From positions 1-64,000 of the IMG/VR virus record IMGVR_UViG_3300033075_001053: DNA of 64,000 bases. One strand, 5' to 3'. Positions 1,241 through 64,000 of the stretch are shown piece after piece. The DNA is from a virus (Duplodnaviria; Caudoviricetes). Numbering within the stretch: position 1 is the first letter of the stretch; every line of letters begins with the position of its first letter. Made by a program: the position numbers and the translations under genes. The notes beneath the pieces are model-generated. The model was not told the origin of the DNA. It did no database searches and saw only the letters and a program-made list of their open reading frames with translations.

Positions 1241-1681
1241 TTACAACTGTTTTTTGTAGTTGTGGGAGTCTTCTAAAAGGAAGCGTTTTTCTTCTGGTGA
1301 GAGCTCGGTCATTTTGATCGACAGGCCGTTTCTATGCAGGACGTTGTAGCGGTATTCGGGCTTTATGTGTTTGAGGGCGGCGGCGGTCATTATAGTAGCC
1401 ATGGAAAGGACGTCGATGGAGCGAAGGTGATGTTGTTTTGCCAGCTCGTCTGCCAGAAGGATAACGTCCAGGTGTAGGGGGATGTAGGATTTTTTTGGGT
1501 GTGGGGAGTAGGGGACGATATCGATGTCCTCGGGCGAGAAGATGGAAAGGGAGTAGCTGACGGCGTCCGAGAAGGAGAACTCGACGCGGTAGTAGCGGAA
1601 CCACCAAAGTCTTATGTATTGGGCGGCTTTCTTGGCCGGCAGCGAAATTGGCTTATTATGGTAGAATTTGTTCACGCGCAA
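1241..1681 (-). CDS. hypothetical protein, possible small DNA-binding regulator
   Basis: 146-aa ORF with TTG start, divergent from the + strand operon; no firm motif. Confidence 0.5.
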   Translation of the reverse strand: MRVNKFYHNKPISLPAKKAAQYIRLWWFRYYRVEFSFSDAVSYSLSIFSPEDIDIVPYSPHPKKSYIPLHLDVILLADELAKQHHLRSIDVLSMATIMTAAALKHIKPEYRYNVLHRNGLSIKMTELSPEEKRFLLEDSHNYKKQL

Positions 1682-1775: not shown

Positions 1776-1865
1776 ATGACGCAATTTATCGAAGCTTTCC
1801 GTAAGGGTCTGTTTCAGGAAGTAGTCGAATTTAAAAGACTCAGCGCTGTAAAAGATGAGACTTAA
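1776..1865 (+). CDS. micro-ORF, 29 aa (MTQFIEAFRKGLFQEVVEFKRLSAVKDET)
   Basis: Manual translation; overlaps next ORF start. Confidence 0.45.
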   Translation: MTQFIEAFRKGLFQEVVEFKRLSAVKDET

Positions 1866-1986
1866 AAAGCACGAGCAAGCGTGGATGATCTTCGAAATCT
1901 TTAAGGATTTGGATTTGTTCAACGACATTAAAGGAGTCTTGTTTGACAAAAATGCGATTGACCTCGACGAAGGGTTCCGTCTATAA
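1855..1986 (+). CDS. micro-ORF A, 43 aa (MRLKKHEQAWMIFEIFKDLDLF...)
   Basis: Manual translation; resembles ORFs B and C. Confidence 0.6.
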   Translation: MRLKKHEQAWMIFEIFKDLDLFNDIKGVLFDKNAIDLDEGFRL

Positions 1987-2065
1987 GATTTTTCATCTTT
2001 TTACTGATCTTGACATTTTGACCCGCGACCCGATGTTCGCACTTACGCAAAGCTGGGAACGATGA
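1952..2065 (+). CDS. micro-ORF B, 37 aa (MRLTSTKGSVYKIFHLFTDLDIL...)
   Basis: Manual translation; ATGA overlap with ORF C. Confidence 0.6.
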   Translation: MRLTSTKGSVYKIFHLFTDLDILTRDPMFALTQSWER

Positions 2066-2187
2066 GACTGCAAGAAAGGATTCGTAGGCTTGACCTTCGT
2101 AAGACGTTTGGTGAGTTTGACCTATTCCAACGTTTAGATTTTGGGTTTGACCTTGATATTCATCCGATTGAAACACTACCTAAATAA
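2062..2187 (+). CDS. micro-ORF C, 41 aa (MRLQERIRRLDLRKTFGEFDLF...)
   Basis: Manual translation; ATGA-coupled to ORF B. Confidence 0.6.
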   Translation: MRLQERIRRLDLRKTFGEFDLFQRLDFGFDLDIHPIETLPK

Positions 2188-3594: not shown

Positions 3595-3758
3595 ACTACC
3601 ACTATTACAAGTCGAAGTCCGAGTGGCGATTCCAGATCGTCTCCAAAGGACGGATTGTAGCTTGGGGCGAAGGGTATAAATCCAAAAGAGGAGCCCTTGT
3701 CATGCTGAAACATTTGATTGGGATCAAGAAAATCATTGAAGGGAAATACAGGAAATGA
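3591..3758 (+). CDS. DUF1508/YegP-like small protein, 55 aa
   Basis: Manual translation YYKSKSEWRFQIVSKGRIVAWGEGYKSKRGA fits the WRF..GEGY.SK pattern; ATGA overlaps at both ends. Confidence 0.7.
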   Translation: MNYHYYKSKSEWRFQIVSKGRIVAWGEGYKSKRGALVMLKHLIGIKKIIEGKYRK

Positions 3759-4036
3759 AACTAATCTTCATTTATCCGAATGCTTTCGCCGATGATATGT
3801 CGGCGGAAAAACTACAAGGGATTATTGATTCCGGTAAGACCACTGTTCTTTCTACGGTTAACCCTGATGTGGCGAAGTACATCACTACCATAGATGTGCC
3901 ATCGCTCAAAGCCGAGTGGGACAAGCCCGGGGTGATTATCCCCTTTGCACAACCGACTGAATACGCAAAATACATATTGGGGTTCTTGATTCTTAACGCA
4001 ATCAGTACTCTTATTCTTTTACTTAAATCACTCTAA
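3755..4036 (+). CDS. hypothetical protein
   Basis: 93-aa ORF with hydrophobic C-terminus. Confidence 0.6.
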   Translation: MKLIFIYPNAFADDMSAEKLQGIIDSGKTTVLSTVNPDVAKYITTIDVPSLKAEWDKPGVIIPFAQPTEYAKYILGFLILNAISTLILLLKSL

Positions 4037-11067: not shown

Positions 11068-11437
11068 GGATGCGATGGTGATGGTGGCTGATGCCATTTA
11101 TGCAAAAACACAGGAAAATGTCTATGAGACTGAAAAGTATAAAGCCGTTATCAGCGCGATTGCACACGAGTGTGTACGTCAAGAGTTTACCCGACAAGAG
11201 TGTATGGAGGCTGCACATCGGTTTGTCTTTAGCACAAAGCAGTATGGGGGCAGGATCGAGCCGTCAGACTTTTTTACCGCTCCACCCGAACGTTTGTATG
11301 ATTACCAATGGTACTTAGACAAAGTTCACGAAGGGCATCGGCGGTTTCAGGTTTACAGTAATGGGAAGAAGGCGTATTACCGACTGGATGACGGTAAAGA
11401 ATACGACGTCCCAGGATTTACAATGAAGCGTATATGA
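10973..11437 (+). CDS. hypothetical protein (replication module)
   Basis: 154-aa ORF; start uncertain, overlaps upstream gene. Confidence 0.65.
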   Translation: MTSLEKYNPQPLQESDSLVLSKLQSIPVVELKDAMVMVADAIYAKTQENVYETEKYKAVISAIAHECVRQEFTRQECMEAAHRFVFSTKQYGGRIEPSDFFTAPPERLYDYQWYLDKVHEGHRRFQVYSNGKKAYYRLDDGKEYDVPGFTMKRI

Positions 11438-61605: not shown

Positions 61606-61753
61606 GTAACGTCTTCCCTATTAGGTTTCTTATGGAGCGTGCTACGAATCTTCGGTCACAACTTAACGCCATAGTATTTGGTACAGACTCAAGAGACATC
61701 AGTTTAACTACCAAATGAACCCAATCATTTCTTTCTAATTCATTCAGTCTCAT
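61586..61753 (-). CDS. hypothetical protein, 55 aa (MRLNELERNDWVHLVVKL...)
   Basis: Manual translation; fills the gap between coupled genes. Confidence 0.55.
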   Translation of the reverse strand: MRLNELERNDWVHLVVKLMSLESVPNTMALSCDRRFVARSIRNLIGKTLHETETP

Positions 61754-63775: not shown

Positions 63776-63993
63776 TTGAATAGTAGAATAATCATAGTAA
63801 CAAAAAGGCCAGCCACGACAATGATTGGCACCAACTTAAAATCAGTGCTGAGCAGCTTTTCGAATCCATCTATAAGAGCAGCCCTTTCCCGTCGGCGGTA
63901 CTCCTGCATGGCAATGTGCCTATCCCGCCACTTTTCGTGCAGCTCTTGAGTAGCGTCCTGGTACCCGTCAAACGTGAGCTTTTCCATCGGCAA
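63772..63993 (-). CDS. hypothetical protein with C-terminal TM
   Basis: 73-aa ORF. Confidence 0.55.
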   Translation of the reverse strand: MPMEKLTFDGYQDATQELHEKWRDRHIAMQEYRRRERAALIDGFEKLLSTDFKLVPIIVVAGLFVTMIILLFK

Positions 63994-64000
63994 ATATACA

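Follow-up and report, generated by a model that had tools for sequence, protein, structure and literature searches.

The question raised by this locus is whether three very short, overlapping ORFs, here designated A, B and C and located at the head of a phage early operon, encode a family of related peptides and, if so, what such peptides might do. The DNA analysed, termed the window, is a stretch of 64,000 nt that constitutes the first part of a 75,496 bp virus contig estimated to be 97% complete. The two ends of this contig (positions 74530-75444 of the genome and 4-534 of the window) adjoin in one contig of a relative (L002:1-1384) and, as that contig spans the end junction, the 75.5 kb record appears to be circularly closed or permuted and so effectively a closed genome, though it is labelled linear. 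The micro-ORF cluster heads a plus-strand operon that extends to ~13.8 kb and also encodes a PD-(D/E)XK-type exonuclease (PHROG 298, E=3e-26), a Tad2-like protein, GroES, NinB/Orf, a glycosyltransferase, NinG/Rap and a replication-initiator-like protein. A DNA polymerase was not found in this early operon, nor was a sliding-clamp gene of the phage's own found in the 75.5 kb genome. The nearest cultured relatives of the exonuclease, with ~30% identity, are from Bacteroidota phages. Host searches with the glycosyltransferase and GroES returned nothing, or generic GroES matches of 35-43% in Clostridia MAGs, and Pfam searches with the fibre and lysis proteins revealed no host-specific domain.

Promoter-like sites and the array of micro-ORFs

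The earlier note described A, B and C as among the first ORFs behind a promoter-like TAnnTTTG motif, and this arrangement is readily apparent, with two tandem matches to TTTG-N18-22-TAnnTTTG located upstream. There are two such matches in the 64 kb window, versus 0.64 expected. The first, P1 (1667-1696, plus strand), reads TTTG-N18-TATTTTTG, conforms to the Bacteroidota-type -33/-7 pattern and is nearly invariant in the relative. The second, P2 (1714-1745, plus strand), reads TTTG-N20-TAGATTTG, with TAGATTTG at 1738-1745 and TTTG positioned 20 nt upstream, and is 100% identical in the relative. As pattern matches, these sites place a putative Bacteroidota-type sigma promoter upstream of the first gene. 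The first possible start codon, GTG 1749, is 3 nt past the P2 motif and is an ATG, 4 nt past the motif, in the relative; this short distance suggests a leaderless or near-leaderless transcript, from which the first ORF may be read. On the minus strand, a third full TTTG...TAnnTTTG match is present at 63969-63998, followed, after 3 nt, by the ATG of the gene at 63987, and TATATTTG (1675-1686) is located 3 nt before GTG 1675 of a divergent 146-aa gene, a codon that is ATG in the relative. With the motifs in these positions, several early genes may be leaderless. SD-like 4-mers occur upstream of 42 of the 103 genome ORFs, which is odd beside the Bacteroidota-type promoters and the affinity of the exonuclease; so many SD-like sites fit a Bacteroidota host poorly.

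The divergent gene (1241-1681, minus strand), which encodes 144 aa in the relative, shares its promoter region with the micro-ORF cluster. It has no match in Pfam or PHROGs and is a candidate regulator. A gene-poor stretch of ~1 kb (240-1240) separates the two divergent early arms and is just 74-81% identical to the corresponding DNA of the relative. It contains repeats with units of 33 nt (GAAGTATAGTTGAGAATGAAGTAAACATGGGGG, 3 copies), 28 nt (2.4 copies) and 13 nt (2 copies), at positions 556-677, 914-979 and 1015-1041. The stretch looks iteron-like and may be an origin or a packaging site.

The plus strand is tiled by ORFs from 1749 to 2365. O0 (1749-1865) encodes 38 aa when read from GTG 1749, beginning V/M-R-L-I-R-A-K, or 29 aa when read from ATG 1776 (1776-1865), and terminates 8 nt past the ATG of A. 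The 43-aa product of A (1855-1986) carries IFEIFKDLDLF. B (1943-2065), which carries KIFHLFTDLDIL, encodes 40 aa if TTG 1943 is the start, or 37 aa if it is ATG 1952, and is read in the +1 frame over the 3′-end of A, with which it overlaps by 44 nt or 35 nt, respectively. A Shine-Dalgarno-like AAGGAG (1931-1936) precedes TTG 1943 by 6 nt and ATG 1952 by 15 nt, and its GGAGT core is kept in the relative despite changed flanking codons. As AAGGAG is conserved 6 nt before TTG 1943, this TTG is the likelier start of B, and the MRL of B may then be internal. C (2062-2187) encodes 41 aa, with a body at ~2070-2181. D (2168-2365) is a frame-2 ORF, open from 2138, with TTG 2168, GTG 2204 and ATG 2273 as possible starts. 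E (2365-2589), a conserved gene of 74 aa, bounds the variable cluster and has an SD sequence (GGAGG) within the last codons of D. All of these ORFs are on the plus strand. The stop codon of B and the start codon of C overlap in ATGA, and such stop/start overlaps link O0 to A and B to C. The coordinates, peptide strings, MRL starts and acidic-hydrophobic motif that the earlier note reported for A, B and C were all recovered as given. The MRL start is common to the three, but that of B may be internal, and M-[KR]-L starts are common among the genes of this phage: its ORFs often have K or R in second place, and KL and RL rank with the most common combinations of second and third residues.

The codon score of A is typical of coding windows and those of B and C are low; low scores were also obtained for the well-conserved small gene F and for the divergent 146-aa gene. 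Long ORFs antisense to the cluster have non-coding codon scores and are interrupted in the relative, unlike A and B, which stay open there. A structured RNA or riboswitch was considered and rejected, as there is no Rfam match over the cluster and its RNA folds less stably than shuffled sequences do (z=+2.4), with a folding energy worse than that of 99 of 100 shuffles. Also rejected was the use of another genetic code or read-through; the long genes are open under table 11, and translation of B past its TGA yields nothing recognisable.

Similarity among A, B and C

Local BLOSUM62 scores, calculated with the initiator Met removed, were compared with those of composition-preserving shuffles. This gave p=0.001 for A-B, 0.13 for A-C and 0.21 for B-C, with 0.002 for the sum of pairs. 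In a register test, the N-terminal 23 residues were compared with a null that comprised all 434 ATG ORFs of at least 30 aa in the genome (93,961 pairs); A-B ranks approximately 10th of these pairs, A-C falls within the top 0.03% and B-C lies at the 10% level. When the genome was searched with tblastn, A and B were mutual best non-self matches, yet with E values of ~0.7-1, and B matches the A sequence of the relative with E=0.07. When the 75.5 kb genome is read in all six frames, the pattern F.[DE][LF]D[LI][FL] has matches solely in A, B and C, a uniqueness that adds nothing and is not an independent test, since the pattern was derived from A, B and C themselves. Taken together, the sequence comparisons support a relatedness of A and B beyond chance.

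The likeness of C to A and B consists of the MRL plus one F...DLF match, and this F...DLF is one of three internal (L/F)D(L/I) repeats, so that C had three chances to match. In a tandem array of paralogues, every pair would be expected to exceed composition-matched chance and every member to be conserved in relatives. Only A-B does the former and C is missing in the only relative. The related trio proposed in the earlier note is thereby reduced to a pair, with the resemblance of A to B upheld and that of C to either one within the range of the shuffles.

As read from the sequence, five of the eight residues shared by A and B use different codons; the differing A/B codons are AGA/CGA, CTT/TTG, ATC/ATT, TTC/TTT, TTG/CTT and GAT/GAC. 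The DNA identity of the A, B and C units is not above that of codon-shuffled versions, with the exception of ATGAGACT, which is common to A and C. With the shared residues mostly in different codons, A and B would be old paralogues, or the result of convergence on a peptide pattern, rather than a recent DNA repeat. Of these, old paralogy is probable.

It could be argued that A, B and C are simply untranslated and unrelated short frames in an AT-rich leader, with their MRL the product of the general M-[KR]-L preference. The frequency of K and R as second residues and of KL and RL pairs in phage ORFs is consistent with this, as are BLAST E values of at least 0.07 for all comparisons among A, B and C and an enrichment of ATGAGACT that, at 9 copies versus 2.35 expected, is unexceptional among 8-mers. 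Such an origin would, however, leave two immediate neighbours with the shuffle p value and the rank among 93,961 pairs noted above for A-B, a plus strand tiled by ORFs from 1749 to 2365 with A and B open in the relative, and a conserved SD sequence before B, and we consider it improbable.

The 3.8-fold enrichment of ATGAGACT involves nine sites, eight of which open ORFs of at least 38 codons. They include sites in the minus-strand segment 61423-61753 and at 11124, 50162 and 6556. The idea that ATGAGACT is a special start or recombination module was dropped, as ~40 other 8-mers are equally or more enriched. Overlapping small ORFs at 61753 and 61605 (minus strand) have TACATGAGACTGAA in common, and two adjacent small ORFs in the other early arm begin with an identical ATGAGACTGAA, a start of the M-[KR]-L type. 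Beyond the window, on the minus strand at genome positions 70221-70849, there are adjacent small genes of 62 and 147 aa that begin MKTYKPFAVWMMSS and MKTYKLPCTWQMSG, respectively. This gene pair has the second-highest N-terminal similarity among all ORF pairs of the genome and, judged by that similarity, is another tandem pair of early paralogues, located in the other early arm.

Comparison with a close relative and the origin of C

A k-mer protein search of 5.8 billion clusters identified one close homologue of the exonuclease, with 90% aa identity. It belongs to a relative that is present on contigs from runs SRR27448536-51, which are mutually identical across this region and have an overall DNA identity of 86% with the window. 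Megablast and tblastn searches of phage records, locus searches of viral and metagenome contigs, searches with exact and degenerate DNA patterns and k-mer searches with the exonuclease, E and the 70-aa ORF described below found no further relatives.

O0 and A are a single 70-aa ORF in the relative, within which the internal M-R-L-K-K-H-E-Q is retained. The fusion arises from a 25-nt indel and a replaced segment in the C-terminal part of O0; the N-terminal 24 aa of O0 are homologous to the start of the 70-aa ORF (z=5.8; E=0.015). With this arrangement, A might usually be one domain within a longer protein. A is 79% identical to its counterpart at the aa level, with DLDLF unchanged. B is intact in the relative, with differences at 3 aa positions, and there is one change in the 44-nt A/B overlap. 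Exceptional conservation of this overlap was considered and rejected, as 7% of all 44-nt segments are just as conserved. Islands of conservation shared by the two phages tend to coincide with gene junctions; 1942-1989 is such an island. E is called in all contigs of the relative. The conservation anticipated in the earlier note is therefore seen for A and B, both kept in the one relative, and fails for C, which is missing there, so that the three ORFs are not conserved as a unit. The two phages also fail to align over a second segment (3760-3938), located inside a 93-aa gene (3755-4036); its counterpart in the relative is ~67 nt, with two small genes of 54 and 56 aa.

Nei-Gojobori counts for the window versus the relative gave pN/pS values of 0.48 for A (6 synonymous and 13 non-synonymous changes) and 0.28 for B (4 and 4), compared with 0.06 for E (18 and 4), 0.07 for F (22 and 5) and 0.12 for the exonuclease (95 and 43). 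The values for A and B are 4-8 times those of the neighbouring genes and, with a single relative, rest on 8-19 substitutions. Among the stop-free frames of their own segments, with all six frames considered, the A and B frames have the lowest pN/pS. The excess of synonymous change in A and in B is not significant (binomial p ~0.08-0.11 each). These counts hint at weak purifying selection on A and B, and it is probable that A and B are genes.

The body of C is missing from all nine contigs of the relative. Three imperfect copies of a 27-30-nt unit make up this body; their TTGACCT cores are at 2090, 2117 and 2147, and they yield RLDLR, EFDLF and GFDLD. No source copy of C was found elsewhere in the genome. 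In the relative, the ATGAGACT start runs directly into D to give a 61-aa protein; in the window, the same ATGAGACT is used by C. D is homologous to the 61-aa gene from residue 3 on (z=34 for the full-length comparison and p=0.0006 for the divergent N-terminal portion), and there are three synonymous changes in D upstream of ATG 2273. Because the frame-2 sequence after C continues the 61-aa gene of the relative, the C body would be an insertion of ~112 nt between the start codon and the body of D. Alternatively, the difference is a deletion in the relative, the direction being one that an outgroup is needed to polarise. The best reading of these sequences is that C is a lineage-specific insertion, born from repeats, and not a third old paralogue. 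The candidacy of C as the N-terminal half of the 61-aa gene, based on an FG...IHP match, is not supported (p=0.05 for the protein; p=0.15 for a shared 9-mer in the DNA).

The repeats in C also raise the possibility of an element that acts as DNA. There are seven copies of TTGAC(C/A) on the plus strand between 1943 and 2152, and these might be protein-binding sites, operators or iterons adjacent to the early promoter, with the likeness of the ORFs a by-product of xTT-GAC-CTx being translated as hydrophobic-Asp-Leu. Five are TTGACC, all within 195 nt on one strand, versus ~0.08 expected from the density across the window, and four copies have the longer context G.G.TTGACCT in common. The spacing is, however, irregular (60, 72, 27 and 30 nt), and a search of other regulatory regions did not find the extended motif. 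Of the five TTGACC, three are in the C insertion, and just one TTGACCT is present in this region of the relative. Each motif keeps to the codon phase of its own ORF, and the DLDLF of A is encoded by GATTTGGATTTGTTC, without any TTGAC. A DNA element is, on this evidence, very unlikely to be the explanation.

A further account reverses the direction of change. If the 70-aa gene, the overlapping B and the 61-aa gene of the relative are ancestral, then insertions of 25 nt and ~112 nt have split long genes in the window, and O0, A and C are fragments that are partly or wholly non-functional. Both differences are in the same direction, with the longer ORFs in the relative, and D in the window has lost its ATG; C is repeat-derived with a low codon score, and the constraint on A at the aa level is relaxed. 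Decay of this kind nevertheless sits uneasily with the retention by A, in both phages, of its own ATG-AGA/G-CTT start, which overlaps the stop of O0 in a coupling arrangement, and with a frame of A that has more synonymous change than any other. It also leaves the A-B similarity unexplained, and the direction of the indels is not polarisable without an outgroup. We regard decay as rather unlikely, and favour the reading of A and B as old duplicates and of C as a recent insertion.

Possible functions of the micro-genes

No match to a Pfam-A or PHROGs profile with an E value below 0.1 was obtained with O0, A, B, C or D. Similarly, tblastn searches of 50,697 phage records identified no homologue, k-mer protein searches and degenerate DNA patterns identified none beyond the one relative, and the ESM Atlas provided no usable match. 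A profile search, suggested in the earlier note as a route to further family members, was undertaken with an HMMER profile of A, B and C, exhaustively over 1.84 billion representatives, and returned A itself and P0007 alone. The latter is a 143-aa translation of a simple repeat, and was judged spurious from its sequence. As there is no homologue elsewhere, any function assigned to A and B is pure inference.

The function suggested originally, as a possibility, was that A, B and C are diversified short-linear-motif peptides directed at the host DnaN (beta clamp); they would dock in its hydrophobic cleft through a QL[SD]LF-like sequence and so block or redirect host replication. Small early polypeptides of the Staphylococcus phages Twort and G1 reportedly bind the sliding clamp and stop host replication, a finding attributed to Belley et al. 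2006. These are, likewise, small orphan early phage proteins, theirs aimed at a host replication hub, but they are from phages of a different host group and have no sequence relation to the ORFs described here, based on tblastn against the 50,697 phage records.

When scored against the clamp-binding consensus QL[SD]LF (PMC9690074, PMC12867686), DLDLF of A matches at 4 of 5 positions, EFDLF of C at 3 of 5 and DLDIL of B, which is DLDVL in the relative, at 2 of 5. The defining Gln is missing from A, B and C, and so none of the three conforms to the consensus. The A sequence is unchanged in the relative, and.L[SD]LF has one occurrence in the rest of the phage proteome (23,636 residues). A motif without Gln has a precedent in Mor of phage Mu, which depends on a motif that keeps only the DLF of the consensus (PMC12867686), and the clamp idea is therefore not absurd. 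MuC, also of phage Mu, uses QHDLF and QPDLF (PMC12867686), and the toxin SocB binds the clamp via the usual motif (PMC9690074). The early operon is lambdoid in appearance, with NinB, NinG and a replication initiator, and a phage for which neither its own clamp nor a polymerase was found cannot avoid engaging the replisome of its host; one that relies on that replisome would, however, gain little by blocking the clamp. The motif of A is internal (residues 18-22 of 43), not at a free terminus, and follows a predicted helix, which ends just before DLDLF in an AF2 model of the 70-aa form of the relative that has a mean pLDDT of 50 and is unreliable, too much so for a search by fold. C, moreover, is dispensable in the relative. 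Docking of A, B and C in the clamp gains no support from the comparisons made here, and we consider it very unlikely.

The precedents themselves correspond only in part. Mor and MuC are phage proteins with a degenerate [D/E]-L-F motif, as here, and their overexpression is toxic through DnaN (PMC12867686). They are, however, folded DNA-binding proteins of ~130-140 aa with a terminal motif that usually has Gln, whereas the peptides in question are of 37-43 aa, with an internal motif, without Gln and without sequence similarity to Mor or MuC, and any binding by them would be putative. SocB of Caulobacter, also a small protein, blocks replication by using the usual motif to fill the cleft of the clamp (PMC9690074), but it is a component of a chromosomal toxin-antitoxin system and not a phage early gene, and has no similarity to these ORFs. 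In an extended form of the clamp idea, A, B and C would be a phage-private family of hub-binding peptides, in which D-L-D-[LIV]-[FL] is a Gln-less clamp-binding motif, or an SSB-tail-like mimic, that seizes the host replisome in the first minutes of infection, C being newly born and the copies having arisen by local duplication behind a reusable ATGAGACT start module. The likelihood of this would also seem to be very small.

The interpretation that we prefer, with our confidence in it evenly poised, is that the locus is a fast-evolving cluster of translationally coupled accessory micro-genes that heads the phage early operon, with A and B old duplicates and C a recent insertion. O0, A, B, C and D would be very short coupled ORFs transcribed from one or two strong promoters, with a transcript that may be leaderless. 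A and B would be real, weakly constrained micro-genes that were duplicated anciently, each product combining a basic N-terminus with a hydrophobic IF..F stretch and an acidic D-L-D-[LIV]-[FL] turn. C would have grown by local duplication of a unit of ~27-30 nt directly after the start codon of D and have taken over that codon. O0 and A, and likewise C and D, would fuse or split between close relatives. The A and B peptides would presumably be made first after infection and be dispensable accessory factors, for host takeover or counter-defence, that may clamp their hydrophobic-acidic face onto a host or phage protein.

Orphan micro-genes with early functions in host takeover head the early operons of phages, for example the class I small genes of T7 and the early ORFans of T4. 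Like these, the members of the present cluster are very small, translationally coupled and first behind putative early promoters, and they turn over quickly between close relatives and have no homologues. No member of the T7 and T4 sets is similar to them in sequence, and a parallel in function would be putative.

Orphan early micro-genes of phages are already a familiar kind, and one more set would not surprise a phage biologist; the A/B family is one found in two close genomes. If A and B are translated, they would add one more case of orphan micro-genes that front a phage early operon, the usual place of host-takeover and counter-defence factors, and the same operon has a Tad2-like gene. 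The comparison with the single relative reveals, at base-pair resolution, how such a cluster changes, with small indels that fuse and split neighbouring ORFs. C would illustrate how, downstream of a start codon already in place, short tandem repeats can give rise to a new ORF that displaces the start of the next gene.
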